Shown here one piece after another: positions 182 through 62,886 of a stretch of DNA of 64,000 nucleotides. A program made the translations under genes and the position numbers. Every line of letters starts with the position of its first letter. The first letter of the stretch is position 1. The DNA is from Zhongshania sp. Lineage in GTDB: Bacteria; Pseudomonadota; Gammaproteobacteria; Pseudomonadales; Spongiibacteraceae. The notes below the pieces were generated by a model, which saw only the letters and a list, made by a program, of their open reading frames with translations, was not told the DNA's origin and searched no databases. The stretch is from contig NZ_JBLIKC010000018.1 of assembly GCF_047636175.1 (NCBI RefSeq), positions 14,481 to 78,480 on the forward strand, given 5' to 3'.

Positions 182-1333
182 TTAATCCGCTTGTTTAATC
201 ACACCCCCAGCTAAGAGCTGATCTATGTGATTTTGCTCTAACCCCAGAGACGCCAAGATTGACGCGGAATTTGCGCCTTCAGCGACGGGAGCATGTTGGA
301 TTTCACCTGGCGTACGCGAAAAACGTGGTGCGGGCGCCGATTGTAAGACATTGTCGCGACGAATAAGATTTTGCCTTGCCACATTATGCGGGAAAGTCTC
401 AGCTTCTTCCAAGTCCAGTATCGGCGCAACGCAGGCATCGCTACCGTCAAATAAGACTGTCCACTCGTCACGGGTTTTCTCTAAAAACCTCGCAGCCATT
501 TGCGCTCTACGGGCCGGCCATGCAGCCTTATCCATTTGCGAAAAATAATCACTGCCGCCAAAATCTAATTCGAGAATAGCCAGCATTTGAGTATAGAACT
601 GGGGCTCTATGGCGCCCACCGACATGGAGCGGCCATCTTTACACAAATAGCTTCGGTAAAATGGCGCGCCGCCATCTAGCATATTTTGCTCGCGCTCCAA
701 CTCCCAGAATTGAATACCCCTGAGGCCGTGAATGGTGCTCAACAGCGATACCGTGCCATCGCAGATTGCGGCATCAATAACCTGACCAACACCCGATTGT
801 TTTCTTTCTAATAATGCCGACAGCACGCCCAGCAATAAGAACATGGAGCCCCCACCAAGATCACCTATCACGTTTAACGGTGTCGGTGGCGCCTCGCCAG
901 CGCTGCCAAAACCGTCTAATAAACCGGTAATTGCGATGTAGTTGAGATCATGCCCTGCCCGCTTTGCCAGTGGCCCATGCTGTCCCCACCCGGTCATGCG
1001 ACCATAAATTAATGCCGTATTACGTTTGGCGCAGTCCTCTGGCCCCAGTCCTAGCTTTTCCATCACGCCGGGCCGGAAGCATTCTATTAATACATCGGCG
1101 GTTTCTACTAGCTGTAGAACCACCTCAACACCGGCGGGATTTTTAAGATCTACCGCAATCGACTTTCGGCCGCGCGCAGTAATGTCGCCGGGATGCGCGC
1201 CCAAGCCGCCGCCAGAAGTGCGATCTATGCGAATGACTTCTGCACCAAGGTCTGACAACAACATACAGGCATACGGCGCAGGACCTATGCCAGCCATTTC
1301 AATAATACGAAAACCTGTGAGTGGCCCGGACAT
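182..1333 (-). CDS. CaiB/BaiF family III CoA-transferase, alpha-methylacyl-CoA racemase-like
   Basis: N-terminal LTGFRIIEMAGIGPAPY, GHDLNY and LDGGAPFY motifs typical of the AMACR/Mcr branch. Confidence 0.85.
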   Translation of the reverse strand: MSGPLTGFRIIEMAGIGPAPYACMLLSDLGAEVIRIDRTSGGGLGAHPGDITARGRKSIAVDLKNPAGVEVVLQLVETADVLIECFRPGVMEKLGLGPEDCAKRNTALIYGRMTGWGQHGPLAKRAGHDLNYIAITGLLDGFGSAGEAPPTPLNVIGDLGGGSMFLLLGVLSALLERKQSGVGQVIDAAICDGTVSLLSTIHGLRGIQFWELEREQNMLDGGAPFYRSYLCKDGRSMSVGAIEPQFYTQMLAILELDFGGSDYFSQMDKAAWPARRAQMAARFLEKTRDEWTVLFDGSDACVAPILDLEEAETFPHNVARQNLIRRDNVLQSAPAPRFSRTPGEIQHAPVAEGANSASILASLGLEQNHIDQLLAGGVIKQAD

Positions 1334-1431
1334 TCATTTTCTCGCTATGTAAAAGGGTGTAACTGGAAGGGAACAGCACACAGCGCAGCGGCAATTCAAG
1401 ACATGGAATCGTCGCCGCACTGTAAAAAAGC

Positions 1432-2253
1432 TTAGCTGCCGGTAAAGACTGCAGGACGTTTTTCTTTAAAGGCGCGCATACCTTCTTTGGCGTCTTTAGA
1501 GCCAAAGACCGGACCAGCTAATTCATCAGATTTCTGCATGGCGTCGTCTTCAGCTAAATGTTCGGTGTGCTCACGCAGTGAACGCACCACCGCTTTAATC
1601 GCCAGCGGACCATTGGCACATATTTTTTCTGCCAGCTTCTTCGCTTCGTTCAAGGTTTCGCCCTTGGGAACAATACGGTTAATCAAGCCAAAATCTAGGG
1701 CCTGTTGGGCGGTGATATGTTCGCCTAACAGCAAAATTTCAGCGGCCAAACAGTAGGGAATTTGCTTGCGCAAGCGAATGGTCGAACCCGACATTGGGTA
1801 CAAGCCGCGCGCCACTTCGGTTACACCGAAAATAGCATCTTCGGCAGCAACACGAATATCGGTGCCCTGCAGCATCTCGGTGCCACCGGCAAGTGCATAG
1901 CCCTCTACAGCAAGCAGTAAAGGCTTGCAGGGACGGTTTTCCCGCAGTAGTGCCTGCCAATGGATATTGGGGACGGTGGCCATTAAATCCATAAATTCTT
2001 GGGTGCTGCCTTGGTCGCCATCGGGGCCGACTTTTAAGTCCATCCCGACGCAAAACGTATCGCCATTGGCGGTAAGGATGGCGCAATATAAACTGTCATC
2101 TTCGTCTAATAGACGCCACGCTTTATACAAACCCAGCAGCATTTCTGGATTAAATGCATTCTTAGCCTCGGGTCGATTTAGGGTGACAATTAAAACATTG
2201 CCTTCCTGTTCGATAAGGCAGGTTTTAGTACTGATGGCTAATTCAGTGGGCAT
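1432..2253 (-). CDS. echA19: enoyl-CoA hydratase (crotonase), EchA19-like
   Basis: Crotonase motifs FCVGMDLK, AGGTEMLQGTDIRVA, LYPMSGS; resembles recalled mycobacterial EchA19; follows the fadD19-like gene. Confidence 0.8.
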   Translation of the reverse strand: MPTELAISTKTCLIEQEGNVLIVTLNRPEAKNAFNPEMLLGLYKAWRLLDEDDSLYCAILTANGDTFCVGMDLKVGPDGDQGSTQEFMDLMATVPNIHWQALLRENRPCKPLLLAVEGYALAGGTEMLQGTDIRVAAEDAIFGVTEVARGLYPMSGSTIRLRKQIPYCLAAEILLLGEHITAQQALDFGLINRIVPKGETLNEAKKLAEKICANGPLAIKAVVRSLREHTEHLAEDDAMQKSDELAGPVFGSKDAKEGMRAFKEKRPAVFTGS

Positions 2254-2355
2254 TTTTGGGCTCCGTAAAATGTATTATTACTGCGTAGCAATAAGGGTAG
2301 CGACGCGGCACACAGCTCGGTTGCCATGATGCCCTGCCCCGCTACCATAATGTCT

Positions 2356-3987
2356 TTAGGCCGCAGCGCCTTTACCACTGTCGGCGTATGCCTTGGCGGT
2401 TTTATAATCTGGTTTACCACTTGGCGCACGGGGCAGCTCGTCTATCAAGTGAATTTCTCTAGGCACTTTGTAGCCAGCAATATGCTTGCGGCAGTGCTCT
2501 TGAATATTTTCTAGGCTTAATTGGGTTCCCTCGCGGGCCTGAATAACAGCGCTCACTCGACTGCCCCAGCGCTCATCATCAACGCCGACAACGAGGGCAT
2601 CAAATATTCCCTTGTGGGCTTTGAGTGCGTCTTCTACTTCTTCTGGGAAGATTTTTTCGCCGCCACTATTGATGCAATTAGAACCCCGTCCAAAAACGGT
2701 GATTGAGCCGTCATCTTCGAGCTTGGCGGCATCACCGGTTAGTAGCCACGTTTTATCTTCAACTTGAATAAAGGTTTTTGCGGTTTTTACAGGGTCGTTG
2801 TAATAACCATTGGGGATATACCCAGCGCGAGCAAAGATACCGGTTTCGCCTAGCTCTGCATGACGCCACGTGTCGCCCTCAAGGTTTATAAGCACATCCA
2901 TAAAATCTGTGCGGCTGACATTACCAAGGCCAGATGCGGTCTTTTTACTGCCATTATCCATACCCATTTGACCACCTTCGGACGAGCCGAAGCTGTTGGT
3001 GATAAAGACATTGGGGAAATGCATTTTAAAGGCTTCTTGCTTAGCTTCAGAGAAGATCGCACCGCCGGAACCAACATTAAATACCGCGCTTAAATCCCAG
3101 CGATCAATATTCGCGTCTAGGGCATCCAGCAGCGGAATAGCCATGGCGTCGCCAACAATTTGCACCGCGTTCACTTTCTCGTCTTGAACAACCTGCCAAA
3201 TCGCTTCGCCATTAAAAGAGCGCTGATGATTAAGGATTAAGGCATTGCCCGCCAATAGCTGAATACAGGCATACCACCATGACGCGCCGTGCATCAGTGG
3301 CGCCAGCGCAATACCGCGCAAGGCGTGTTCAGTAACGCGGCTGGCCATGTCTTCAGGCTTCTCACAGGCGCCTAGGGGTGAAAAGTGTCCACCGCCGCCC
3401 ATGGCTGCAAAAAATACATTCTTCTGTGGCCACATCACGCCTTTGGGCATGCCAGTGGTGCCACCGGTGTAGAGAATGAAATAATCATCCCCTGAGCGCT
3501 CACCGAAGTTGCGCTCTTTAGATTGGGCTTCTCGCACGGTGTGGTAATCCACTGCATCAATCGTCGCCAGCGGCTCTTCACTATGGTCGGCAACGGCAAC
3601 ACATAATTTCAGGGTCTTGGCGGCGCTGCGAACCTCAGCGATGGCCGGAATAAATTCGCGGTGATGGATACAGGCAACCATGTCCGCATTATCAAAAATA
3701 TATAACAACTCGTCTTTTACATAGCGATAGTTGACGTTGATTGGCACAGCCCGAATTTTAAAACAGGCGAGCATCGCTTCCAGATACTCATTGCAGTTAT
3801 ACATATACAGGCCGACGTGATCGCCAGCATTAACACCCTTAGACACCAGGTAATGGGCCATTTGATTGGCGCCGGCATCTAATTCCGCAAAGCTACAACG
3901 GCTCGCTCCGCAAACTAGCGCCTCGCGCTCTGGCACTTTGTCAGCAACAGCTTCAAATAAATCTGCGAGGTTAAATTGCATAGTCAT
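2356..3987 (-). CDS. fadD19: acyl-CoA synthetase, FadD19 (steroid-CoA ligase) family
   Basis: AMP-binding loop YTGGTTGMPKGVMW, NVNYRY, INSGGEKIFPEEVE; N-terminus (NLADLFEAVAD) resembles FadD19. Confidence 0.85.
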   Translation of the reverse strand: MTMQFNLADLFEAVADKVPEREALVCGASRCSFAELDAGANQMAHYLVSKGVNAGDHVGLYMYNCNEYLEAMLACFKIRAVPINVNYRYVKDELLYIFDNADMVACIHHREFIPAIAEVRSAAKTLKLCVAVADHSEEPLATIDAVDYHTVREAQSKERNFGERSGDDYFILYTGGTTGMPKGVMWPQKNVFFAAMGGGGHFSPLGACEKPEDMASRVTEHALRGIALAPLMHGASWWYACIQLLAGNALILNHQRSFNGEAIWQVVQDEKVNAVQIVGDAMAIPLLDALDANIDRWDLSAVFNVGSGGAIFSEAKQEAFKMHFPNVFITNSFGSSEGGQMGMDNGSKKTASGLGNVSRTDFMDVLINLEGDTWRHAELGETGIFARAGYIPNGYYNDPVKTAKTFIQVEDKTWLLTGDAAKLEDDGSITVFGRGSNCINSGGEKIFPEEVEDALKAHKGIFDALVVGVDDERWGSRVSAVIQAREGTQLSLENIQEHCRKHIAGYKVPREIHLIDELPRAPSGKPDYKTAKAYADSGKGAAA

Positions 3988-4175
3988 ATTCTCAATCCCT
4001 TATTATTTTCTGTGCGATATTCGTAAACTATTCTGTAAAAATTCCACACCGCTCGCAACGCTTGTATTGTTCAGCGCAGTACAAAGTATTCACAAATATA
4101 ACAACCGCCACCTAGCACCACCATCCCCCCAAGAGACGAGCCTAGGAGAAGAGCGCTAGATGGCGGCTTAGCGAA

Positions 4176-5339
4176 TTACGGCTTCTCTGAACTCACTACC
4201 CACATTGAGAAGAACTGCGCGCCACCGCCATAGGCATGTCCTAGCGCTGTTTTGGCGCCGTCTACCTGATGACCACCGGCTTCGCCACGGACCTGCTGCG
4301 CGGCTTCCGCAAAGCGAATCATACCTGATGCGCCAATGGGGTTAGAACATAGCACGCCACCGGAGCAATTCCAGGGAATGTCGCCGCCGTCGATCAAGGA
4401 GGTCGCACCCGCCATGGTCAATTCCCAGCCCTTACCGGGATCGGCAAAGCCAAGGTTTTCAAGCCACATTGGCTCGTACCAAGAAAACGGCACATAGACT
4501 TCAGCACAGTCAAAATCTTTACGTGGATTATGAATGCCAGCCTGCGCGTAAACATCTTTGGCGCAATCGATACCTGCCTGCGGATTTACTTGATTACGAC
4601 CTGCATACATCGTGGGTTCTGAGCGCATTGCCGCGCCGCGAATCCACGCCGGTTTACGAGGTGACTTAGCCGCCAGCTCTTCGTTGGCGATAACCATGGC
4701 ACAGGCACCATCAGACGAGGGACAGGCTTCTAAGAATCTCAGGGGCTCCCACAGCATTGGGCTGTCTTCAACTTCCTTGAGGGTAATATTTGGCAGCTGC
4801 AAATGCGCCAATGGGTTTCTAGAACCGTGCAAACGATCCTTAACTGCCACCTTGATACCCGCGTCGTAGGGTGCATCTGACCGACGCATATACTCGCGAA
4901 TAATCGGCGCGAAATAACCGCCCGCACCGGCATTTAAATGCGGTGAGAAAGGCTGGGGATTAGATAGCGCCCACATGGCATTCGACTCTGACTGTTTCTC
5001 ATAAGACACAGTCAAAATACGTTTAAACACCCCGCTTTGCACATACGATGCGGCAACGATGGCGGTAGAACCACCCACCGAACCCGCGGTGTGTACGCGC
5101 AACATCGGCTTGCCATTACAGCCCAGCGCGTCGGTTAAATACAATTCAGGCATAATCACGCCTTCAAACATATCCGGCGCCTTGCCAATAATGACCGCGT
5201 CGATGTCATCCCAACTTAAACCGGCGTCTTCAAGGGCATTAACCGCGGCTTCGCGCACCATGCCAGCAATGGAAACATCTTTGCGTTTGGTTTTATATTT
5301 TGTTTGGCCTACGCCAACAACAGCAGCTAACTGAGCCAT
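4176..5339 (-). CDS. ltp3: thiolase-fold protein, Ltp3-like (aldolase subunit)
   Basis: GKAPDMFEG, HTAGSVGGST (no thiolase catalytic Cys), EKQSESNAMWALS, GHAYGGG. Start moved to ATG 5339, which overlaps the upstream gene's TAA. Confidence 0.85.
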   Translation of the reverse strand: MAQLAAVVGVGQTKYKTKRKDVSIAGMVREAAVNALEDAGLSWDDIDAVIIGKAPDMFEGVIMPELYLTDALGCNGKPMLRVHTAGSVGGSTAIVAASYVQSGVFKRILTVSYEKQSESNAMWALSNPQPFSPHLNAGAGGYFAPIIREYMRRSDAPYDAGIKVAVKDRLHGSRNPLAHLQLPNITLKEVEDSPMLWEPLRFLEACPSSDGACAMVIANEELAAKSPRKPAWIRGAAMRSEPTMYAGRNQVNPQAGIDCAKDVYAQAGIHNPRKDFDCAEVYVPFSWYEPMWLENLGFADPGKGWELTMAGATSLIDGGDIPWNCSGGVLCSNPIGASGMIRFAEAAQQVRGEAGGHQVDGAKTALGHAYGGGAQFFSMWVVSSEKP

Positions 5340-6400
5340 TATTTTGCCTCCAGTACGGTAATCAGGTTTTGTTGCAAGCACGGACCTGATGTCGCGTGGG
5401 CAACACCGCGTTTTGCTTCGCCACGAATAATGCGCATGGCAACTTCACCAATACGCGACAAACCTGATGCCATCATCACGTTACCCGCCAACACACCACC
5501 GGATGGATTAATCACGGTGTTGTCATCCAAGCCCAAGGCCTTTTTAAGAATAATTTCTTGATGACTAAAGGGCGCATACAGCTCGGCAACATCAACCGGA
5601 CCATTTGCCACCCCCGCTGCCTTCGCGGCGATTTCTGTTGATACCGACCGGCTTAGATCACGCGAGCCAATGTGGTGGGTTTCAATACGGTGATCAATGC
5701 CCTTTATCACTGCATAGGGCTTGCCCCATTCCTTTGCTTTCTCGATGGTGCAGATAATCATGGCGCAGGCGCCATCTGAAATTGGGCAGCAATCATGACG
5801 ACGCAGTGGCGAAACATAGGTCGCTTCTTTCAATAAGTCAGCAGCGGTCTGATCGCCTTTTAACTGCGCGTAGGGATTATTCGCCAAGGCGTTATTTCTT
5901 GAGCGCGCCACGACCTCAGCCATATCGGTCTCGGTAATTTCGCCTGAGTCCAACATCGTTCTCGCCTGCATAGCAGCAAAGGCAATACTGTCTACCCACA
6001 GCGGTGCGAGGTAATACGGATCGAGTTGTTGAGACAGCACGATGGGGAGTTCACCCGGAGAAGATTTGCCAAAGCCGTATAATAACGCTGACTCAGCTTG
6101 CCCCATCTGGATTTTCAGCCAAGCTTCATAAAGCGCCCACGCTGCATCCATTTCCACATGTGATTCTTTAATCGGTGGCACTGCGCCCAAGGCGTCAACA
6201 CCGGCAACAAAGGCAAAGGCTGCGCCCTGCTGATAATCACAGCTACCAGAGCAAGTGAAGTCGACGTCTTGCGCGCTGCTAATTCCCGCTTGCTTAAATA
6301 CTTCACTGAGCACTGGCATGATCAGTTCTACTTCGTTTTGCGCGCCGGCATCTCGCTGGCAATTCGATTGCGCAAAGGCAACTATTGCAACATCACGCAT
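5339..6400 (-). CDS. ltp4: thiolase-fold protein, Ltp4-like (aldolase subunit)
   Basis: ESHVEMDAAWALYEA, YGFGKSS, AHATSGPCLQQNL match recalled Ltp4. Start moved to ATG 6400, just after the upstream stop. Confidence 0.85.
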   Translation of the reverse strand: MRDVAIVAFAQSNCQRDAGAQNEVELIMPVLSEVFKQAGISSAQDVDFTCSGSCDYQQGAAFAFVAGVDALGAVPPIKESHVEMDAAWALYEAWLKIQMGQAESALLYGFGKSSPGELPIVLSQQLDPYYLAPLWVDSIAFAAMQARTMLDSGEITETDMAEVVARSRNNALANNPYAQLKGDQTAADLLKEATYVSPLRRHDCCPISDGACAMIICTIEKAKEWGKPYAVIKGIDHRIETHHIGSRDLSRSVSTEIAAKAAGVANGPVDVAELYAPFSHQEIILKKALGLDDNTVINPSGGVLAGNVMMASGLSRIGEVAMRIIRGEAKRGVAHATSGPCLQQNLITVLEAK

Positions 6401-6401
6401 T

Positions 6402-7379
6402 TTATCGGCCCTCATCAATTAATTTACCAATCAGATCCACCGCCATATCCGGCTCGTCTATTGGCTTAAAGTACTGGATGTTTTCCATGGCAAAGCCCCA
6501 CTCTTCCTCAGGGCGCCAAAGCGCTTCTACTCGCATACCAATCCGCACGTCTTCGTTTTTACATTCGCTAAGCAAATGCAAGAAACTCAAGTTCGCGCCG
6601 TCTAAAACCAAATTGGCAATAACGTAGGGCGGCTTGATCGGGTTACCTGGAATGGGAATGTAAACAATAGTAAAGGACTCAACTGTGGCCTTGTTGCCTA
6701 AGGTCACTTGCTCTTCGGTCGGTACGCCACACGCCGCGCACGAACCACGGGGTGGGATATAAACATTGCGGCATTTTGGACAGCGCTGACCGACCAATTT
6801 GCCTTCTTTCATTGAACGCAAATAGAGTGAGGTCGCTTTACCTGCGGTGAAGTTATAGGTTAGGTAGCTTGGCGATTCGACACCGATAATAGGCTCATCA
6901 GAAGCCGCCGGTTTCAGCTCAGTCAGGAGCGCAACGGACTCGGGAACAAAGCCGTTAAGATCATCCATGACGCCCTTAGTCTCTGCGGCCCAACGCGCTT
7001 TGACACGCATACCAGTAGTCACCGCCGCTTCGTCACCTGCGTCTAGCCAATGCAGCATTGGGGTATCGGCGCCGTCCAGCAAAATCATTGCCCAGGCGAA
7101 TGGCTTATCACTGGGATGGGCTTTGCGGGGCTCTTTAACCCAGCACCAAGTCTTGACCACACCGCTGTCAGCAACATCGACAAATTCGGTTAATGCGGCA
7201 GCGCTCACCGGATCAAATTCCACCGGCGGCATTAGCACTTTGCCATCGCTGGCTTTAATGCCAACCATTTTGCGTGCGCGCAAGGAGGTCAAAAACTGAC
7301 CCACAATAGGTCCAGTGGACCGTGTATAGGTATAGCCCAGCGTAAAGGCTTGGCTAAGAGTTTCAGCCGATGACGACAT
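6402..7379 (-). CDS. tandem DUF35 Zn-ribbon/OB-fold protein (Rv3521-like)
   Basis: Two OB-fold repeats (PFAWAMILLDGAD; PYVIANLVLDGAN); second repeat has CPKC..CAAC; first gene of the ltp4-ltp3 operon. Confidence 0.85.
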   Translation of the reverse strand: MSSSAETLSQAFTLGYTYTRSTGPIVGQFLTSLRARKMVGIKASDGKVLMPPVEFDPVSAAALTEFVDVADSGVVKTWCWVKEPRKAHPSDKPFAWAMILLDGADTPMLHWLDAGDEAAVTTGMRVKARWAAETKGVMDDLNGFVPESVALLTELKPAASDEPIIGVESPSYLTYNFTAGKATSLYLRSMKEGKLVGQRCPKCRNVYIPPRGSCAACGVPTEEQVTLGNKATVESFTIVYIPIPGNPIKPPYVIANLVLDGANLSFLHLLSECKNEDVRIGMRVEALWRPEEEWGFAMENIQYFKPIDEPDMAVDLIGKLIDEGR

Positions 7380-7488
7380 TAGGTCTCTCCTTCGTATTTA
7401 AAATCGGTCAGCGCTGCACTTAGGTGTGTCGCCAACCAGCCTGATGCGAAGTATCTCTGTGGCCCCGAAATCAGACAATGTCGCAGCT

Positions 7489-7519
7489 GATCAAGTACAT
7501 GACAAAAACGATCAAGTAC
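7489..7519. promoter_or_regulatory. direct repeat GATCAAGTAC x2 with 21-bp period, upstream of the steroid operon; candidate operator
   Basis: Exact 10-mer at 7489-7498 and 7510-7519; palindrome GACAATGTC nearby at about 7474-7482. Confidence 0.35.
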
Positions 7520-7749
7520 TGTCGGTATTAAGCGATGAAGGAGACAGGTCTGTTATGAACTGAAGTAACGATGGGATGATGTAAATAGTGAGCCGCGAGG
7601 GCAAGGTAAATACGGTCGGTGCGCAATCACTCAAGAGAGCCATTGCGCTAGTGATAAAGCATACTCATCCATGACTTAGCGCCGGCGGGTCACGCTGAGA
7701 ACGCATACCACAAGCATACACACCGCCGCCTACTTAAGACTTAACAATG

Positions 7750-8901
7750 TTAAGGCTGAATCTGATCTACCGGGCAACTATCTGCGGGGATATTGGGATC
7801 AACGATACACTCAAAATAAGGTACGGTTTCGTTGTAGCTGCCATCGAGCATTTTGCGCATATTTTCAAACGCGACCCGCATAACCGGATGGTAGGCCTGC
7901 GCTTCTGAGGCGTGGCCGGCCAGATTAAGGTAGGGGTCAGCATCACCCGCACCCGCTGTGCCGGTCCCCGTTGTACCGGGATCCTGCTCGGCAGGAATAC
8001 CAACAATGGTGAAGAACTGCGTGGGTATACCAGAGGTGGTTAAGGTAGATGCCATTACTCGGGCCTGATTGTGGGGAACCAAACCATCATTTACTGCATG
8101 TATTACCGTGGCTGCACGCACACCGGCGAGTTTCATTTCGGCGGCATGATAAGCGGGCGAGCGTCGCGCAAACGCCAGCGGACAGGTAACCGGATTGCCA
8201 CCGGTGTCGCGCTCAATACCGGCCTGGGCTTGTGCCGCGGTTTCCGATATTGATGCAGCAGCGGTCGCCTCTGCGTAGGTTTCAGCTAACTGACTGACAC
8301 CCTCTACATCGAGCCAATAGTCATACAGCGAAGAGCCGTCTTCGGTAACAGCAGTAGATTCTATAATCGCGGTACCCGAGACAGCGCCACCCATAGATAC
8401 GCCGAACATATAGACAGTAGCGATGCTGGGGAATTTCTCCATGGCATAACGTGTTGCTGTAATCGTGTCATGGGCGCCGCGCAGGGTGGGGAAACCGAGG
8501 TTGTCCCGGTAGTCGGTGCTCACAAATGCCACGTCGCTGGGCTGGTTCTCAAATGACTTTGCTAAACGGATTTCGCGGGTCATATGGGGCAGCCAACTGT
8601 CGCGGACGTTATTGCCTATGCCATGGGCAAATACCACCAGCCGGGTAGGCGCCTCACCTTCTTTATAAACCAATATGCCTTCTGGTAATGGCAGATTTGA
8701 GTCGGTATCGGGAATGCAGCCGGGATTAACATCCTGAGGTCCGGCAATATTATAGCTGGCTAAGTCCGTGGCGGAGTCGGTAGTAAAGGTCTCGGTCACA
8801 TAAGTGGCACTACCCGGGCCAGAAACACTGGAACTGCTGCTTCCGCCACAGGCAGTAACTGTTACGGCCATAATGGCACCAAGAATAAGGGGTTTTTTCA
8901 T
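7750..8901 (-). CDS. lipoprotein with alpha/beta-hydrolase fold
   Basis: Lipobox VTAC then Gly/Ser linker; nucleophile elbow GVSMGG; candidate Asp (VNDGLVP) and His (GHAS). Confidence 0.7.
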   Translation of the reverse strand: MKKPLILGAIMAVTVTACGGSSSSSVSGPGSATYVTETFTTDSATDLASYNIAGPQDVNPGCIPDTDSNLPLPEGILVYKEGEAPTRLVVFAHGIGNNVRDSWLPHMTREIRLAKSFENQPSDVAFVSTDYRDNLGFPTLRGAHDTITATRYAMEKFPSIATVYMFGVSMGGAVSGTAIIESTAVTEDGSSLYDYWLDVEGVSQLAETYAEATAAASISETAAQAQAGIERDTGGNPVTCPLAFARRSPAYHAAEMKLAGVRAATVIHAVNDGLVPHNQARVMASTLTTSGIPTQFFTIVGIPAEQDPGTTGTGTAGAGDADPYLNLAGHASEAQAYHPVMRVAFENMRKMLDGSYNETVPYFECIVDPNIPADSCPVDQIQP

Positions 8902-12538: not shown

Positions 12539-13708
12539 ATGAGCACTTCCTACCCTACTTTGAACTTTGGCCTCGGTGAAGAAGTTGAGATGTTGCGCGA
12601 TGCCGCCCAGCAATTTGCCCAGAAAGAAATTGCCCCCCGCGCGGAGAGCATCGACAAAGACAATGAGTTTCCCATGGACCTCTGGCGCAAAATGGGCGAC
12701 ATGGGCTTGCTCGGCATCACTGTCTCAGAAGAGTATGGCGGCAGCAATATGGGCTATCTGGCCCATGTTATTGCCATGGAAGAAATCAGCCGCGCTTCCG
12801 CGTCGGTGGGCCTTTCTTACGGCGCTCACTCCAATTTGTGCGTAAACCAACTCTTCAAGAATGGCACTGACGCCCAGCGCGAAAAATATCTGCCCAAACT
12901 CTGTTCAGGCGAACATATTGGCGCACTGGCCATGTCAGAACCCAATGCCGGCTCGGATGTTGTCAGCATGAAACTTAAAGCCGAAAAAGACGGTGACCAC
13001 TATGTGCTTAACGGCAATAAAATGTGGATCACCAATGGCCCCGATGCCCACACCTATATCATCTACGCAAAAACTGATATCCACGGCGGCTCACGCGGCA
13101 TTACCGCATTTATTGTCGAACGCGACTACCCCGGCTTTAGCCGCTCACCTAAATTAGACAAGCTCGGCATGCGTGGCTCCAACACCTGCGAGCTGGTGTT
13201 TGAAAACTGTAAAGTGCCAGCGGCAAATATTTTGGGCGCGGAAGGCGGCGGCGTAAATGTATTAATGAGCGGCTTAGATTTTGAACGCACGGTGCTATCT
13301 GGCGGGCCAACAGGCATTATGCAAGCCTGCCTCGACGTGGTGATCCCCTATCTTCACGACCGCAAACAATTCGGACAGAGCATTGGCGAGTTTCAATTGA
13401 TGCAAGGCAAATTGGCAGACATGTACACCGAATTGAATGCCAGTCGCGCCTATCTTTATACCGTCGCCAAAGCCTGTGATCGCGGTGAGGCCAGTCGTAA
13501 AGATGCGGCCGCTGTCATTTTGTATACTGCCGAGCGCGCCACCCAAATGGCACTACAAGCGATTCAAGCTCTGGGCGGTAATGGCTACACCAATGAATAT
13601 CCAACGGGCCGCTTACTGCGCGACGCCAAGCTTTATGAGATCGGCGCTGGCACCTCAGAAATTAGACGCATGTTGATTGGTCGTGAGCTCTTTAAAGAAA
13701 CGATGTAA
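12539..13708 (+). CDS. liuA: isovaleryl-CoA dehydrogenase
   Basis: [41 protein letters not shown]. Confidence 0.95.
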
Positions 13709-13759
13709 CACACTCGCTTATAAAAATTAATCCTAAGAAATACCATAGGCACCGCGACA

Positions 13760-15367
13760 ATGACTGTACTGACATCGACTATTAATCCACGCGACCCAAG
13801 CTTTATTGAAAACGCCGAACACATGCAAGCGCAAGTCGACGACTTAAAGCAGCTAGTCGCTAACATTAATCAAGGCGGTGGCGAAAAGTCACAGCGGCGT
13901 CATCAAGACAAGGGCAAGCTACTGCCCCGCGAGCGAATCAGCGCGCTAGTAGATGTGGGTGCCCCCTTTTTAGAGCTATCGCAACTGGCCGCCTATAAAG
14001 TCTATGACGAAGAAATCGCCGCTGCGGGCTTAATCACCGGCATCGGACGGGTCTGCGGTCAAGAGTGCATGATCATTGTTAATGACGCCACGGTGAAAGG
14101 CGGAAGTTACTTTCCGCTAACGGTAAAGAAACATTTACGCGCGCAAAATATCGCCCAAGAAAATCATTTGCCCTGTATTTACTTAGTCGATTCCGGCGGC
14201 GCCAATCTGCCCCGTCAAGACGAAGTGTTTCCAGATCGCGAGCACTTTGGTCGAATATTCTTCAATCAGGCAAATATGTCTGCAATGGGTATTCCGCAAA
14301 TCGCAGTGGTCATGGGTAGCTGCACCGCAGGCGGCGCTTACGTCCCGGCTATGGCGGACGAATCTATTATTGTCAAAGAGCAAGGCACGATTTTTCTGGC
14401 CGGCCCGCCATTGGTTAAGGCCGCCACCGGTGAAGTGGTTAGCGCGGAAGCCCTGGGCGGTGCAGATGTGCATTGCAAAGTGTCTGGCGTTGCCGACCAC
14501 TACGCCCAAAATGATCATCATGCTTTGCAAATAGCGCGCAATGCGGTAAAACGCTTGAATCGTTGCAAACCGATATCTATGGATATTAGCCCCAGCGTCG
14601 AGCCGGCTTTTTCACCCCAAGAAATTTACGGCGTGGTTCCCAAAGACAGCCGCAAACCCTACGATGTGAGAGAAGTGATTGCGCGGATTGTCGATGGCTC
14701 CGACTTCGACGAATTCAAAGCCCTATTTGGCACGAGCTTGGTATGTGGCTTTGCCCGCATCTTTGGCTATCCGGTGGGCATTGTGGCCAACAACGGTATT
14801 CTGTTTTCAGAGTCGGCACAAAAAGGCGCGCACTTTATTGAGCTGTGTGCGCAACGCAAAATTCCGCTGATCTTTTTACAAAATATCACCGGGTTTATGG
14901 TTGGCCAGCAATACGAATCTGGCGGCATTGCCAAGCACGGCGCCAAAATGGTGACTGCCGTTGCCTGCGCACAAGTACCTAAACTCACAGTATTGATTGG
15001 TGGCTCGTTCGGCGCAGGGAACTACGGGATGTGCGGCCGCGCTTACGACCCGCGCTTTATGTTTATGTGGCCTAATGCCCGCATCTCGGTTATGGGTGGC
15101 GAGCAAGCCGCTGGCGTGATGGCGCAAATCAAACGCGACCAGTATGAGCGCGAAAATAAAGATTGGCCAAGTGACGAAGAGCAGGCCTTTAAGCAACCTA
15201 TTCTCGACACCTACGAGGAACAGGGTCACCCCTACTTTGCATCAGCCAGACTGTGGGACGACGGTGTTATCGATCCTGCCGATACGCGCATGGTGCTGGG
15301 CTTAAGCCTGTCAGCCAGTTTGAACAAGCCCATAGCAGACACTAAATTTGGTGTCTTTAGAATGTAA
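13760..15367 (+). CDS. liuB: 3-methylcrotonyl-CoA carboxylase, carboxyltransferase subunit
   Basis: [40 protein letters not shown]; operon context. Confidence 0.95.
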
Positions 15368-15446
15368 GCCAAGCCCTAATTAATACACTAAATGCCGCCG
15401 TGATCGCTACGCCAAACGCGGGTAATAATATCCAGGAAATAAAATA

Positions 15447-17456
15447 ATGTTCGACAAAATTTTAATCGCAAACCGTGGTGAAATTGCCTGCCGAGTTATT
15501 AAGACGGCGCGTGAACTGGATATTCTAACCGTTGCTGTTTACAGTGACGCCGACCGCAGTGCGCTGCACGTCAGTATGGCTGACGAAGCCGTCTATATTG
15601 GCGCGTCGCCGGCTAGAGAATCCTATTTAGATGTTAATAAAATTATCGACGCAGCAAAAATAAGCGGCGCCCAAGCTATTCATCCCGGTTACGGTTTCCT
15701 ATCTGAAAACGCCGAGTTTTGTCGCCGCTGCGCAGCCGAGAATATCGTTTTTATTGGTCCGCCAACCAGCGCAATAGTGGCGATGGGATCGAAATCTGCC
15801 GCCAAAGACATTATGGGAAAAGCCGGCGTACCCCTGGTTCCCGGTTATCATGGCGCCGACCAGAATCCAGAAATCATTCGCCAGGCGGCTAATGATATGG
15901 GCTACCCGGTATTGCTAAAAGCCACCGCCGGGGGCGGCGGTAAGGGTATGCGACAAGTGTGGAGCGCCGAAGAGTTCGACAGCGCCCTGCAGGCCGCAAA
16001 GCGCGAAGCCCTTAATGGCTTCGGCGACGATACGATGTTGGTAGAAAAGTATCTTACCCAGCCACGCCACATCGAAATTCAAGTTTTCTGCGACAGCCAC
16101 GGCAACGCTGTTTATCTGTTTGAGCGCGACTGCTCTATTCAGCGCCGCCATCAAAAGGTCATTGAAGAAGCGCCCGCGCCGGGCTTAAGTTCGGCACTGC
16201 GTAGTGAAATGGGTAATGCCGCGGTATGCGCCGCGCAAGCCATAGACTACGTTGGCGCCGGCACCGTTGAATTTTTATTAGATAGCGACGGTAGTTTCTA
16301 TTTTATGGAAATGAATACCCGCTTACAGGTTGAGCACCCGGTCACTGAAATGATCACTGGCCTCGATCTAGTCGACTGGCAGCTCCGCGTTGCCGCGGGC
16401 GGTGTATTGCCACTGAAGCAAGATGAACTGCAAATTCGCGGTCATGCCATAGAAGCGCGAATCTATGCAGAAGATCCCGACAATGAGTTTTTGCCGCAAA
16501 CAGGCACCCTCCACTTTTTAGAAACCCCGTCTGAATCCGCCCACGTTCGCATTGATACCGGTGTGCGTGAAACCGATGAGGTAAGTGTGTTTTACGACCC
16601 GATGATTGCCAAGCTCATCGTCTGGGATGAAGACCGCGACGCCGCGCTGCGTCGCCTAAGTAGCGCACTTAAACAATACCGTATCAGCGGCGTGATCAAT
16701 AATATTGATTTTCTGCACACCCTCAGTCGTCATCCGGCCTTTGTTGCTGCCGATTTCGACACCGGTTTTATCGGCAAGCACGAAGCCAGTTTAATCGGCA
16801 TCGCCCAGCCCCAAAATCCCAGTAGCATAGCCCTCGCCGCCTTGTATTTAGTGCTGGCACAAAAGCAGCGCATCCAAGAATTTGCGCAAGCCAGTGGCGA
16901 AGCAAATTCGCCCTGGAACAATCCCCACAACTGGCGCCCCAACCAAGCCGCAGAACATCGCTTTACACTCAAAAGTGGCGACGATCTGCATACGGTAGCA
17001 GTGACCGCCCAGTCGAGCGCCATGGATTCTGCCTTTTTGATTCACTGCAATGACACCGCCTACACCGCAAGTGGCGAGCTAGCCGGCCGAGTAATGAAAG
17101 CAGATATAAATGGCCGCAAACTCACCGCCACCATTTCTGCTCATGGCGGCAGTTATAGCCTATTCAGTGCAGAGCCAACCCTGCACTTCGCTATTCACGG
17201 ACCGGACTTGGGTGACAACAGCAATGACGCCGGTGAAGATCAATTAGTCGCTCCCATGAACGGCACCGTGGTGAGCCACTTAGTAGAGACCAGCAGCAGC
17301 GTTGTCAAGGGCACTCCGCTGATGATTATGGAGGCCATGAAAATGGAGCACACCATTCGCGCACCCGCAGATGGCATCGTCAAGGCCTTCTATTTTCAGG
17401 CCGGCGAGCTAGTCAGCGGCGGTGCTGAGTTAATTCAATTTGAGCGAGCTGAATAA
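15447..17456 (+). CDS. liuD: 3-methylcrotonyl-CoA carboxylase, biotin carboxylase/biotin carrier subunit
   Basis: ILIANRGEIA, HPGYGFLSEN, MNTRLQVEH, C-terminal EAMKM biotinylation site. Confidence 0.92.
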   Translation: MFDKILIANRGEIACRVIKTARELDILTVAVYSDADRSALHVSMADEAVYIGASPARESYLDVNKIIDAAKISGAQAIHPGYGFLSENAEFCRRCAAENIVFIGPPTSAIVAMGSKSAAKDIMGKAGVPLVPGYHGADQNPEIIRQAANDMGYPVLLKATAGGGGKGMRQVWSAEEFDSALQAAKREALNGFGDDTMLVEKYLTQPRHIEIQVFCDSHGNAVYLFERDCSIQRRHQKVIEEAPAPGLSSALRSEMGNAAVCAAQAIDYVGAGTVEFLLDSDGSFYFMEMNTRLQVEHPVTEMITGLDLVDWQLRVAAGGVLPLKQDELQIRGHAIEARIYAEDPDNEFLPQTGTLHFLETPSESAHVRIDTGVRETDEVSVFYDPMIAKLIVWDEDRDAALRRLSSALKQYRISGVINNIDFLHTLSRHPAFVAADFDTGFIGKHEASLIGIAQPQNPSSIALAALYLVLAQKQRIQEFAQASGEANSPWNNPHNWRPNQAAEHRFTLKSGDDLHTVAVTAQSSAMDSAFLIHCNDTAYTASGELAGRVMKADINGRKLTATISAHGGSYSLFSAEPTLHFAIHGPDLGDNSNDAGEDQLVAPMNGTVVSHLVETSSSVVKGTPLMIMEAMKMEHTIRAPADGIVKAFYFQAGELVSGGAELIQFERAE

Positions 17457-17458
17457 TC

Positions 17459-18325
17459 ATGGCAAAGATATTCCCAAACAGAGCACGCATCGTCGAGGTA
17501 GGCCCACGAGATGGCCTCCAAAATGAAAAGCAGCCTATCGATATCGACACCCGTGTGCAGCTCATCAATAAACTTGCCGACGCCGGTCTTAGCTATATCG
17601 AAGTAGGCAGTTTTGTCAGCCCGAAGTGGGTGCCGCAAATGGCCGGTAGCGACCAAGTGTTTGCCGGTATAGAGCGCAAGCAAGATGTTCACTATATTGC
17701 CCTGACTCCCAATCTGCGCGGTTATGAGCAAGCGGTTCTTGCCGGTGCTAGCGAAGTGGCGATTTTCACCACCGCCTCTGAGGCCTTTGCCCAGAAAAAT
17801 ACCAATTGCTCCATCGCAGAAAACCTTGAACGGTTCACGCCGATTATTGCAAAAGCCAAAGCACAGGGAATGCCGGTACGCGGCTATATTTCCTGTATTG
17901 CGGGCTGCCCATACGAGGGTGATATTCCACCAGAAGCAGTTGCGCAGCTCGCCGTTAAATTAATTGAGATGGGCTGCTACGAAATTTCACTGGGCGACAC
18001 CATCGGCAGCGGTACCCCAGAGCAAATCACCGCTATCTTAAAGGTGGTATTGCAACACGTCCCAGCCGACAAACTTGCGGTGCACTTTCACGACACCAAT
18101 GGCCGCGCATTAGAAAATATTCGCGTGGCACTGCAGTCAGGCATTACCGTGATTGATAGCGCGATAGGCGGATTGGGTGGCTGCCCCTACGCCGAAGGCG
18201 CCTCAGGTAATGTGGCAACCGAGTCAGTCATCGGCTTATTGGATGAACTCAATATTGCCCACGGCATTAATCTTCCCAAGCTTTTACAAGCAAGTGCATT
18301 TATTACTCAGGCACTAAAGAGCTAA
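17459..18325 (+). CDS. liuE: hydroxymethylglutaryl-CoA lyase
   Basis: EVGPRDGLQNE, HFHDT, GLGGCPYAEGASGNVATE. Confidence 0.92.
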   Translation: MAKIFPNRARIVEVGPRDGLQNEKQPIDIDTRVQLINKLADAGLSYIEVGSFVSPKWVPQMAGSDQVFAGIERKQDVHYIALTPNLRGYEQAVLAGASEVAIFTTASEAFAQKNTNCSIAENLERFTPIIAKAKAQGMPVRGYISCIAGCPYEGDIPPEAVAQLAVKLIEMGCYEISLGDTIGSGTPEQITAILKVVLQHVPADKLAVHFHDTNGRALENIRVALQSGITVIDSAIGGLGGCPYAEGASGNVATESVIGLLDELNIAHGINLPKLLQASAFITQALKS

Positions 18326-18391
18326 GAAAGGAACAACAACCAGTGTGTAACGCTGGACACATTATCAGGTCTTAGCGCTAGGAAAAAAATA

Positions 18392-20344
<1,953 letters not shown>

Positions 20345-20419: not shown

Positions 20420-21613
20420 TTAGTCAACAAAACGCTTTCGGTATTCCGCAAATTGTTGCTTTAAGCCTTCTTCGGTTAAACCAAACTGCTCGAGGGTATA
20501 TTCATGGCCGGGACGACTGTCACGGCGGTTATCTTCCTGATGTTTTTCCATGGCGGCACGAGCGGTATCGGTAAGGTCCATGCCAATAAAATCATAGACT
20601 TTCTTTACCGACGACAGCGGGTCGACCACGGTGTCTTTATACCACACGTCCAAAAATGCCTGCGGCTGTTGATCACGAATTTTTAGCGTGTGTAATGTGC
20701 CGCGCGCATATTTTGCAGCCCACTGCTCGCCAACTACTTTTCCATCTACCTTATCGCTGCACATAATCCATAGGTTGTAATTCATACTCGCAGCAGAGGG
20801 AATGGTCTGCAGCGGGTCGCGGTGAGTCTGAACAATTTTAGCGTCTGGAAATATCTTTAACAAAGTCGCGATATGGTGGATATGATGTGGCGTTTTTAAC
20901 AGCCAGCGCTCGGCCACTTGGCTTGTTTGTTTTTTCTGCCACTGCAAAAATTGTAATAGGCGTTTCAGGTATTGATAAGCCGGTGTATTGTCGTGTTCAT
21001 CGTTCCATTTGCCATAGGTTGGCACATTGCAAAAAGCATCGGGTACGGTGCTATAAAAACTGTGCTCCAGTAGCAGTATATCTTCATCAGCAGCCACCGG
21101 GTCCATGGGATGAATAGCTGCAATTTCTGGGTTTGCCGCTAACATGGCGGCCACTTCAGCCTCAGCAGAAGTAATGCGTGCATCCTTACCTTTAAAGTCC
21201 CACTCTAATTCCGGTGCGGGGTTGCGCACTTCATACCACAGCGGTGCGTAAAAGCGTTTATCCGCAGCGAGTATTCGATGAAAGAACGTCGAACCCGTTC
21301 GCTGCAATCCAATAATCACGACCGGAGCAGTAATTTCTTCGTCAAGAATCTCTGGGTGTTTATCAATCCACCCCTCTACTCGCAGACGATTAATTAGAAT
21401 ATTGAGAATACGCTGGTACTGACCAAAACGGCCGCCGGGATTTAAATTGGCCTCTTCGTTTAATGACTTGATCAAGATGTCCAGGGGCTCACGAAAAGAT
21501 TCATCACCAAAATCAGTTAGGCCGGTGGCATCCATGGCCGCTGCCAATAAGGTGGTCGCTGTTAAATCAACCTCGGGAATAGCAAAGTCTGTGCTCTGTT
21601 GTTCTGTGCTCAA
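20420..21613 (-). CDS. sulfotransferase family protein
   Basis: PAPS-binding-like GLQRTGSTF, WLLKTPHH, HRDP; TTG start with AAGGAG upstream. Confidence 0.85.
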   Translation of the reverse strand: MSTEQQSTDFAIPEVDLTATTLLAAAMDATGLTDFGDESFREPLDILIKSLNEEANLNPGGRFGQYQRILNILINRLRVEGWIDKHPEILDEEITAPVVIIGLQRTGSTFFHRILAADKRFYAPLWYEVRNPAPELEWDFKGKDARITSAEAEVAAMLAANPEIAAIHPMDPVAADEDILLLEHSFYSTVPDAFCNVPTYGKWNDEHDNTPAYQYLKRLLQFLQWQKKQTSQVAERWLLKTPHHIHHIATLLKIFPDAKIVQTHRDPLQTIPSAASMNYNLWIMCSDKVDGKVVGEQWAAKYARGTLHTLKIRDQQPQAFLDVWYKDTVVDPLSSVKKVYDFIGMDLTDTARAAMEKHQEDNRRDSRPGHEYTLEQFGLTEEGLKQQFAEYRKRFVD

Positions 21614-21626
21614 GATCGTCTCTCCT

Positions 21627-62855: not shown

Positions 62856-62886
62856 GATCTAATCCTCTATATCGTAGTGCGCAAAA

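Follow-up and report, generated by a model that had tools for sequence, protein, structure and literature searches.

The question raised by the window analysed here, a 64,000-nt stretch of a Zhongshania sp. genome (contig C18, positions 14481–78480; genome of 3.7 Mb in 51 contigs, 99.7% complete), is what a compact gene cluster resembling the Rv3521–Rv3523, fadD19 and echA19 genes of Mycobacterium tuberculosis does in a marine gammaproteobacterium. We read the cluster as the form that the actinobacterial sterol side-chain module takes in Cellvibrionales, most likely serving aerobic sterol catabolism by Zhongshania, and put the probability of this at about 0.62. The reading is supported by the family membership of the gene products, the coupling of the genes, the lost thiolase residues, the phylogeny and the remaining steroid-pathway genes of the genome, each of which, like the identities and order of the genes, is observed directly.

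The original prediction, made from the letters of the window, described six co-oriented genes in the order DUF35-ltp4-ltp3-fadD19-echA19-racemase, and the open reading frames (ORFs) of the window and the family matches of their products bear this out. The six minus-strand ORFs lie between positions 182 and 7379 (window coordinates, unless a contig or locus is named). They encode a tandem-DUF35 protein of the Rv3521 type (6402–7379; 325 aa), an Ltp4 orthologue (5339–6400; 353 aa), an Ltp3 orthologue (4176–5339; 387 aa), a FadD19-type acyl-CoA synthetase (2356–3987; 543 aa), an EchA19-type enoyl-CoA hydratase (1432–2253; 273 aa), and an alpha-methylacyl-CoA racemase (MCR) with a family III CoA-transferase fold (182–1333; 383 aa). 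The junction sequences place the ltp4 start at the ATG at 6400, 1 base after the DUF35 stop, and the ltp3 start at the ATG at 5339, which shares a base with the ltp4 stop (5′-TAATG); these corrected starts agree with the 352–353-aa length of the homologues and with the start of the NCBIfam alignment. Because of this 1-nt gap and 1-nt overlap the first three genes are tightly coupled, as had been proposed, and spacers of 188, 102 and 98 nt separate ltp3 from fadD19, fadD19 from echA19 and echA19 from the racemase gene. As this order is found again in other Zhongshania and in Spongiibacter and Halieaceae genomes, the arrangement is not a matter of chance.

The 14.5 kb preceding the window were also fetched to follow the gene row, which extends past position 182. 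An NfnB-like nitroreductase gene of the flavin mononucleotide (FMN) type (minus strand, C18:13983–14657; 224 aa, Pfam Nitroreductase), whose first 59 codons occupy positions 1–177 of the window, starts 4 nt after the racemase stop, and an ORF for a second, co-oriented crotonase (enoyl-CoA hydratase) lies 46 nt further on, outside the window (C18:13169–13936). This second, divergent crotonase is followed by a terminator-like hairpin ~280 nt beyond it and by convergent genes.

Family assignments were made with Pfam and NCBIfam profiles, the latter judged against their curated cut-offs. Ltp4 matches PRK07937 (Rv3522 subfamily) with 497 bits against a cut-off of 419, Ltp3 matches PRK08313 (Rv3523 subfamily; 662 versus 514), the FadD19-type ligase matches PRK07798 (Rv3515c subfamily; 668 versus 543), and the EchA19-type hydratase matches PRK07799 (Rv3516 subfamily; 321 versus 316). 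Ltp4 is single-copy in the genome. The fadD19 product is 43–50% identical to the ligases adjoining ltp3 or echA19 in actinomycete and myxobacterial loci, and FadD19 orthologues of 63–82% identity are present in 18 of 18 related genomes tested. The racemase aligns full-length with MCR of M. tuberculosis (1x74, residues 1–351; 377 bits), with 356 bits to Far (2g04), and keeps the catalytic His/Asp motifs, AGHD and IGDLGGGS aligning with AGHD and VGDFGGGS of MCR; the proposed identity of this gene thus holds. Two other MCR paralogues, ~48% identical to that of the cluster, are found at C4:104954–106081 and C4:38286–39410. The nitroreductase scores 186 bits to M. smegmatis NfnB (2wzv).

The DUF35 part and the two thiolase-fold proteins form the core of the cluster. 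Pfam and the genome search both find two DUF35 domains in the tandem protein (two OB_ChsH2_C matches with zf-ChsH2), of which the N-terminal lacks zinc-binding cysteines and the C-terminal carries a CxxC-x10-CxxC ribbon (residues 200–218); the PDB matches 3irb, 6esq_E and 6ok1_B, all DUF35 chains, span the C-terminal half only. The domains are fused in Zhongshania, Spongiibacter and some actinomycetes, and elsewhere are mostly encoded by two adjacent genes of ~150 and ~170 aa. Across the compared loci the four-cysteine ribbon never occurs in the upstream DUF35 domain and is present in a subset of the downstream domains.

Residue conservation was followed as column counts over 71 Ltp3 and 81 Ltp4 sequences, with the motifs aligned to 6esq, 4yzo and 6hsj. 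The absence of the thiolase catalytic cysteine from both proteins, noted in the original prediction, is confirmed by the alignments and counts: Ltp3 and Ltp4 both lack the nucleophilic Cys, the HDCF Cys and the catalytic His of SCP2 thiolases. In Ltp3, HTAGSVGGS replaces the nucleophilic-Cys stretch, E-x-YVPFSW with an invariant Tyr replaces HDCF, and Asn takes the place of the catalytic His within SNPIGASG (71/71); all three stretches show little or no variation, and a HAYGGG motif is highly conserved. The equivalent Ltp4 segments are SHVEMD(A/G)AW and (H/Y)APF, the first residue of the latter being variable (His in 48, Tyr in 28 and others in 5 of 81), with Asn for the catalytic His in 76 of 81. 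Ltp3 is the more conserved partner (61–73% identity across phyla versus 54–61% for Ltp4), and the Tyr of its YVPF motif aligns with the catalytic Tyr position of TcLtp2 and CtSal. In those enzymes the catalytic base is Tyr294 (YDHF) and Tyr302 (YDCY), respectively (PMC12329534). These sequence features suggest that Ltp3 is probably the retro-aldolase subunit, with the Tyr as base, and Ltp4 probably a non-catalytic partner. Since a thiolase-fold dimer is held between two DUF35 domains in the solved complexes (PMC12329534), the unit of the module would combine one Ltp3 and one Ltp4 with two DUF35 domains that differ from each other.

The Rv3521–Rv3522–Rv3523 genes with fadD19 and echA19 of the M. 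tuberculosis and Rhodococcus cholesterol cluster share with the present cluster the NCBIfam subfamilies, the DUF35-ltp4-ltp3 order, the loss of thiolase residues and the presence of steroid genes in the genome. Here, however, fadD19 and echA19 follow ltp3 on the same strand, whereas in the fetched actinomycete loci the two are divergently oriented and precede DUF35-ltp4-ltp3; the racemase, NfnB-like nitroreductase and second crotonase are appended; the host is a gammaproteobacterium; and no KstR-type operator was found, the motif TnnAACnnGTTnnA having 0 matches in the window against 1.0 expected. The ChsH1-ChsH2-Ltp2 system of Thermomonospora curvata (6OK1) is likewise a DUF35-held thiolase-fold retro-aldolase without thiolase cysteines and with Tyr first in the HDCF-equivalent motif, and the proposal of two DUF35 domains for each Ltp3/Ltp4 pair is modelled on its DUF35-dimer-DUF35 architecture (PMC12329534). 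Ltp2 differs in that it is a homodimer, its DUF35 domain is the tail of a hydratase, and it acts on a C3 side chain at C17–C20. In Ltp2 the motif reads YDHF and Tyr344 is a second catalytic residue, whereas Ltp3 has YVPF and, at the position equated by a motif alignment not checked against 6ok1, Asn. Similarity to Ltp2 is low (Ltp3, 86 bits; Ltp4, 27 bits). Shy-Sal of Comamonas testosteroni is a proteobacterial steroid side-chain retro-aldolase that also combines a thiolase fold, DUF35 and a tyrosine base (PMC12329534), but Sal has YDCY with a catalytic Cys, a Cys3His zinc site and C5 bile-acid side chains as substrates, belongs to another clade, and does not have two unlike thiolase-fold subunits. 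Compared with the second acid of Ltp2 or Sal (Tyr344 or Cys304), Ltp3 keeps the invariant Tyr but has Pro as the third motif residue and Asn at the equated position; it would at most work like Ltp2 and Sal, and appears to be a member of neither clade. The BbsAB benzoylsuccinyl-CoA thiolase and the archaeal complexes of thiolase, 3-hydroxy-3-methylglutaryl-CoA (HMG-CoA) synthase and DUF35 protein also pair DUF35 with an SCP2-type thiolase fold and are among the best PDB matches, but 6esq retains the catalytic Cys in the alignment and Ltp3 and Ltp4 do not. We take these complexes to be true thiolases, with one DUF35 per identical subunit and non-steroid substrates.

The Ltp4 family is small, with 245 representatives among 1.8 billion (E≤1e-30). 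The closest named homologues are those of Zhongshania (95%) and Spongiibacter (86%), followed by Litorivivens, Halieaceae and Oceanicoccus, and the species-representative genomes give 100% for a Zhongshania sp. metagenome-assembled genome (MAG), 94% for Z. aliphaticivorans BC9_2A and 91% for Z. borealis. The Ltp4 homologues therefore place the host in Zhongshania (Spongiibacteraceae, Cellvibrionales), which agrees with its earlier description as a marine gammaproteobacterium. The loci compared are the 80 most similar to the query and come from four phyla; Mycobacterium and Rhodococcus sequences are not in the set. They include Cellvibrionales at 56–94% Ltp4 identity, Acidimicrobiia, Microthrixaceae, Amycolatopsis, Saccharopolyspora, Streptomyces, Nocardioidaceae and Blastococcus at 54–61%, Myxococcota, and a few Spirochaetota bins. 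Identity to the actinobacterial proteins is 54–61% for Ltp4, 61–73% for Ltp3 and 43–45% for FadD19.

In a tree of Ltp4 rooted with Ltp3, the gammaproteobacterial sequences form a single clade (support of 99 in the SH-like approximate likelihood ratio test, SH-aLRT) inside a diversity whose basal branches are all Actinomycetota. In the reciprocal Ltp3 tree, rooted with Ltp4, they again form a single clade (SH-aLRT 95); its sister group is actinobacterial, and it too is nested among Actinomycetota. Branching inside the gammaproteobacterial clade tracks the families Spongiibacteraceae and Halieaceae. The G+C content of the cluster (50–52%) matches that of the genome (47–52% across contigs), and there is thus no sign of recent transfer. 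The simplest reading of these patterns would be that the genes moved once, long ago, out of Actinomycetota and have since been inherited vertically in the Cellvibrionales. The description of the operon as being of actinobacterial type is upheld by the nesting of both clades among Actinomycetota and by actinomycete loci with an M. tuberculosis-like layout, and the trees do not group the proteins with non-steroid thiolase/DUF35 clades. Clusters of the Cellvibrionales type with 75–80% Ltp4 identity also occur in a Paracoccaceae MAG (L020) and a Cryomorphaceae MAG (L028); they branch within the Spongiibacteraceae/Halieaceae clades and probably reflect mis-binning rather than transfer.

Across the 80 loci the DUF35-ltp4-ltp3 order is constant, with DUF35 present in 77 and Ltp3 in 75, the shortfalls being mostly at contig ends. 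In the Cellvibrionales ltp3 is followed by fadD19, echA19, in some cases MCR, the nitroreductase gene and the crotonase gene. The nitroreductase is kept behind echA19 or MCR in 16 loci of Cellvibrionales type (two of them under MAG titles of other phyla) and the second crotonase in 14, and both are more constant than the racemase. The racemase, which the original prediction counted as part of the operon, does lie beside the cluster here and in a few other genomes besides those of Zhongshania, but it is not general, being absent from most Halieaceae loci. In loci of Amycolatopsis, Nocardioidaceae and Streptomyces a reversed fadD19 and then echA19 lie upstream of DUF35-ltp4-ltp3, which we take to be the M. 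tuberculosis layout. CYP125-like and thiolase genes are nearby in three of five actinomycete loci with this layout (Amycolatopsis, Nocardioidaceae and Saccharopolyspora), and KshA-like neighbours are also found among the actinobacterial cholesterol-cluster loci. In ten Halieaceae-type loci the cluster is directly preceded by an HsaC-like dioxygenase gene, and in one genome (G124) KshA is 11 kb from it.

An acyl-CoA dehydrogenase pair lies directly behind ltp3-fadD19 in Pseudomaricurvus, Myxococcota and Blastococcus. Its counterpart here is at the far end of the window (61719–64000; 49–61% identity for the alpha and 40–46% for the beta subunit), where a ChsE5-like gene (61719–62855, minus strand) and a ChsE4-like gene (62887 to past the window end at 64000, minus strand; 395 aa) are 31 nt apart. 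The structure comparison covered the alpha subunit, which matches M. tuberculosis ChsE4 (4x28_A) over its full length with 412 bits and T. curvata 6wy8_B with 369 bits. Just past the window end, facing away from the ChsE4-like gene, is a gene pair (C18:78823–80466; L095:2824–4467). Its first gene, the one DUF35 gene that the genome has besides the tandem gene, encodes a 144-aa protein with a C4 ribbon; after it comes a gene for a 395-aa thiolase-fold protein. The latter keeps the nucleophilic Cys (AACASG), but HDCF is replaced by YDLS and the catalytic His by Glu; with the free-standing DUF35 protein it is a candidate for the last side-chain cleavage, in an Ltp2-like role.

The genes for ring degradation lie on other contigs. 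KshA (236 bits to Pfam KshA_C), an HsaC-like dioxygenase (274) and an HsaA-like oxygenase (361) are encoded in a row on contig C25, the scores of the latter two being under the equivalog cut-off of 450. A plus-strand operon on contig C8 is typical of C/D-ring degradation and includes genes for a CoA-transferase subunit, a FabK-like reductase, a hydratase, several paired acyl-CoA dehydrogenases, a thiolase and a short-chain dehydrogenase/reductase. Profile scores above cut-off in this operon are those for PRK07938 (366 versus 260), PRK07801 (695 versus 591) and PRK07791 (430 versus 373), the first two of which are presumably the EchA20 and FadA6 models. The CoA-transferase-domain and FabK-like genes are at the places expected of ipdA/ipdB and ipdC, although their identity is not confirmed. 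Two of ~10 cytochromes P450 are CYP125-like: against a reconstructed CYP125 ancestor they score 391 and 340 bits, and against natural CYP125s about 224–250 bits. Together with the ChsE4 homologue, the KshA-HsaC-HsaA row, the C/D-ring cluster and these P450s answer the call for ring-cleavage genes that accompanied the original prediction. A FadD3-family ligase (C8:108739–110274; L014:13674–15302) scores 663.5 against a cut-off of 657, but was not counted because of its unrelated surroundings of Ada-like, AsmA-like and alanine dehydrogenase genes. On contig C25 a second gene for a sulfotransferase with tetratricopeptide repeats (TPR; L013:11686–13245) faces away from kshA.

A scheme for the cluster can be drawn in which we infer the substrates, the subunit roles and stoichiometry, and the parts played by the nitroreductase and second crotonase. 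Oxidation at C26 would be carried out by a CYP125-like P450 encoded elsewhere in the genome, and the FadD19-type ligase would form the steroid-26-oyl-CoA, of which the racemase would interconvert the 25R and 25S epimers. The ChsE4-ChsE5-like dehydrogenase would introduce the 24(25) double bond, to be hydrated by the EchA19-type hydratase or, for branched substrates, by the second crotonase. With an alkyl branch at C24 the product would carry a 24-hydroxyl, and as this is tertiary the intermediate could not undergo oxidation and thiolysis; instead a retro-aldol cut of C24–C25 would release propionyl-CoA. The cleaving enzyme would comprise Ltp3, Ltp4 and the two DUF35 domains, fused here in one chain, with Ltp3 catalytic through a tyrosine base as in Ltp2 and Sal, Ltp4 degenerate, and each DUF35 domain clamping one thiolase-fold subunit. 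Algal or sponge sterols branched at C24, which the original prediction had in mind, would be possible targets of such a route, beside cholesterol and other branched lipids. At the level of a guess, the nitroreductase and second crotonase may reduce or isomerise the 22 or 24(28) double bonds of algal sterols; to our knowledge, no role in sterol catabolism has been described for an NfnB-like nitroreductase.

Occurrence in the order was followed in 301 sampled genomes, with Ltp4 called at E≤1e-60 and KshA_C at E≤1e-30. Ltp4 is present in 56 of the genomes and 23 of 134 genera, KshA_C in 68 genomes, and both in 43. KshA thus accompanies 43 of the 56 Ltp4 carriers and 25 of the 245 other genomes (odds ratio 29, Fisher p 5e-23, uncorrected for phylogeny).

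Several observations count against a role in sterol catabolism. The remaining 13 of the 56 Ltp4 carriers have no KshA_C match even at E 0.001, although 10 of these are at least 90% complete, and all 13 keep a FadD19 orthologue (63–72% identity). In one of them (G022, 100% complete in 4 contigs) the module consists of DUF35, DUF35, ltp4 and ltp3 only (C2:588475–591822; L098:8475–11822), in housekeeping surroundings next to an arginyl-transferase gene and copper-resistance genes. The ring genes and CYP125-like P450s of this genome are on other contigs than the cluster, whose own neighbours are general lipid genes; the ring genes looked for include KshA, HsaC and HsaA, with KstD and HsaD outside the search; and the statistic for the association of Ltp4 with KshA makes no correction for phylogeny. 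The hydratase does not reach the cut-off of the EchA19 equivalog NF051848 (316 versus 400 bits) and, being above that of PRK07799, is EchA19-like rather than a certified equivalog. The trees come from the 80 nearest loci only, by a short search and with a long outgroup branch, and the organism is known only as a metagenome-assembled genome. As Fujimoto et al. are said to have found in 1982, the classical sitosterol route needs C28 carboxylation, and a dedicated carboxylase for it was not identified here. Given the co-occurrence with KshA and the 13 carriers without it, the link between the module and the 9,10-seco pathway is strong but not strict. The lineages without KshA either strip side chains only or use the enzymes on non-steroid branched acyl-CoA, and on their account confidence in a sterol-specific role is held near 0.6.

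That second use leads to an unlikely alternative, in which the substrates of the module are non-steroid lipids with alkyl or methyl branches, for example branched hydrocarbons and acids derived from phytol or other isoprenoids. The racemase would then act on 2-methyl epimers, Ltp3 and Ltp4 would cut 3-hydroxy-3-alkyl-acyl-CoA that ordinary beta-oxidation cannot process, and steroids would be at most one class of substrate. The KshA-less carriers with FadD19 and the isolated module of G022 speak for this, as do the acyl-CoA dehydrogenases, thioesterases and leucine-type cluster neighbouring the genes in the window, the known use of aliphatic hydrocarbons by Zhongshania, and the status of MCR as the classical pristanic-acid enzyme. 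The orthology to actinobacterial genes that lie in cholesterol clusters, and there have CYP125-like, KshA-like and thiolase genes as neighbours, points the other way, together with the strong co-occurrence with KshA, the HsaC-like gene beside Halieaceae clusters and the strong full-length ChsE4 match; KshA-less carriers, moreover, could strip side chains and leave the ring. Genetics in Rhodococcus also indicates sterols: in Rhodococcus rhodochrous it is only for sterols branched at C24 that ltp3/ltp4 and fadD19 are required (Wilbrink 2011, 2012, as cited in PMC6593523).

The same mutants, which lose just branched-sterol degradation (Wilbrink 2012, as cited in PMC6593523), bear on a still less probable alternative, that the cluster serves unbranched cholesterol-type side chains only, in a first beta-oxidation cycle, with Ltp3 and Ltp4 carried along or minor, as seemingly in M. 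tuberculosis. Related isolates were indeed enriched on and grow on cholesterol (PMC5790920; 10.1101/775916). The DUF35-ltp4-ltp3 core is nevertheless the most conserved part of the locus, with invariant motifs and Ltp3 identities of 61–73% across phyla, and this conservation together with the translational coupling argues for a selected function of the Ltp3/Ltp4 core. For cholesterol alone it can be said that FadD19, EchA19 and ChsE4-ChsE5 of M. tuberculosis act on cholesterol intermediates and that this organism retains Rv3521–Rv3523 though meeting only cholesterol; many marine sterols, on the other hand, are C24-alkylated. By far the least credible proposal is that Ltp3 and Ltp4 are ordinary SCP2-type thiolases performing thiolysis within beta-oxidation. 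They do have thiolase N- and C-terminal Pfam domains, and SCP2-type thiolase folds are among their best PDB matches, but the sequences contradict this proposal: the nucleophilic Cys is replaced in HTAGSVGGS (Ltp3) and EMD(A/G)AW (Ltp4), the HDCF Cys in YVPF and (H/Y)APF, and the catalytic His by Asn in 71 of 71 Ltp3 and 76 of 81 Ltp4 sequences. A sterol side-chain function for the cluster remains the preferred reading.

The 370-nt gap upstream of the DUF35 gene (7380–7749) is presumed to contain the promoter of the minus-strand cluster. No clear shared palindromic motif was found in this region or upstream of the other cluster genes, kshA, the ipdA-like gene and the CYP125-like genes, or in the divergent region between the ChsE4 and DUF35 genes, and promoter and terminator scans were at or under shuffle expectation except for the hairpin 280 nt beyond the second crotonase. 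A TATTG…CGCAGTA-like element before fadD19 and echA19 occurs 24 times genome-wide against ~7 expected and was dropped for want of a clear tie to steroid genes. Beyond an alpha/beta-hydrolase gene (7750–8901), a TetR gene located 17 nt before a P450 gene (9819–11863) was considered as regulator and C26 hydroxylase and rejected, the P450 being CYP120/CYP51-like (171 bits to Synechocystis CYP120) and not CYP125/142. The block of hydrolase, TetR and P450 genes is found only in this species and is not at this site in Z. aliphaticivorans or Z. borealis.

A carboxylase cluster at 12539–20344 was likewise rejected as a source of C28 carboxylase, since it looks like an isovaleryl-CoA pathway and is linked to ltp genes in 0 of the 80 loci. 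It encodes an isovaleryl-CoA-dehydrogenase-like protein, a carboxyltransferase, a biotin carboxylase with an MCC BT domain, an HMG-CoA lyase and an acetoacetate-CoA ligase, with no methylglutaconyl-CoA hydratase gene between the carboxylase subunits. A second carboxyltransferase gene, with crotonases and a dehydrogenase, is found at C4:122–127 kb. A sulfotransferase and DUF1214 pair follows at 20420–22754; an uncultured gammaproteobacterium (L045) has homologues of 42–46% identity directly behind ltp4-ltp3-echA19. Between 24000 and 34000 the G+C content of the window falls to 41–47%, against 48–52% elsewhere in it.

The title of the original prediction presented the operon as a surprise in this host. 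The genes are real, but the surprise is smaller, as sterol degradation by Zhongshania, Halieaceae and BD1-7 members has been published (PMC5790920; bioRxiv 10.1101/775916). As of 2016 no proteobacterium was known as an aerobic sterol degrader, and missing Cyp125/142 was given as a reason (PMC4810484); in 2018 Cellvibrionales isolates were shown to be sterol degraders (PMC5790920). The cholesterol-degrading isolates belong to the same genus or family (SB11-1A, Halieaceae BC5-1 and the BD1-7 clade; Holert et al. 2018, 2019), and their growth and ring-pathway genes are reported in the keyword-searched parts of those papers; cholesterol growth is given for Zhongshania sp. SB11-1A, a Halieaceae strain and BD1-7 strains. 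The locus of Z. aliphaticivorans BC9_2A has the same cluster with 94% Ltp4 identity. A keyword search of the text of the 2018 paper (PMC5790920), which did not extend to the 2019 preprint, finds neither ltp nor fadD19, and no names for the side-chain genes are given in the papers searched. With the genus already known as a cholesterol degrader and the gene families known, the find is largely expected. New relative to the literature searched are the conserved two-DUF35, Ltp4 and Ltp3 core with Ltp3 as its likely catalytic subunit, the Cellvibrionales nitroreductase and crotonase, and the KshA-less carriers.

For the uncharacterised Ltp3/Ltp4 enzyme these results offer predictions of the catalytic subunit, the base tyrosine and the presence of two DUF35 domains per heterodimer. 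More tentatively, the module may be a distinct heteromeric retro-aldolase, with a Tyr-based Ltp3, a degenerate Ltp4 and two unlike DUF35 clamps, whose range reaches beyond steroid degraders; KshA-less marine gammaproteobacteria might then employ it together with the FadD19-type ligase to cut non-steroid 3-alkyl-branched acyl-CoA or to harvest just the side chains of marine sterols, and the nitroreductase and crotonase might represent undescribed steps. This is a doubtful prospect at present. Practical interest is modest, such aldolases being used or sought for making steroid synthons from phytosterols. Sterols are a large marine carbon pool, and many marine sterols are alkylated at C24; the locus, present in 56 of the 301 sampled genomes of the order, is a concrete candidate for the removal of their side chains.

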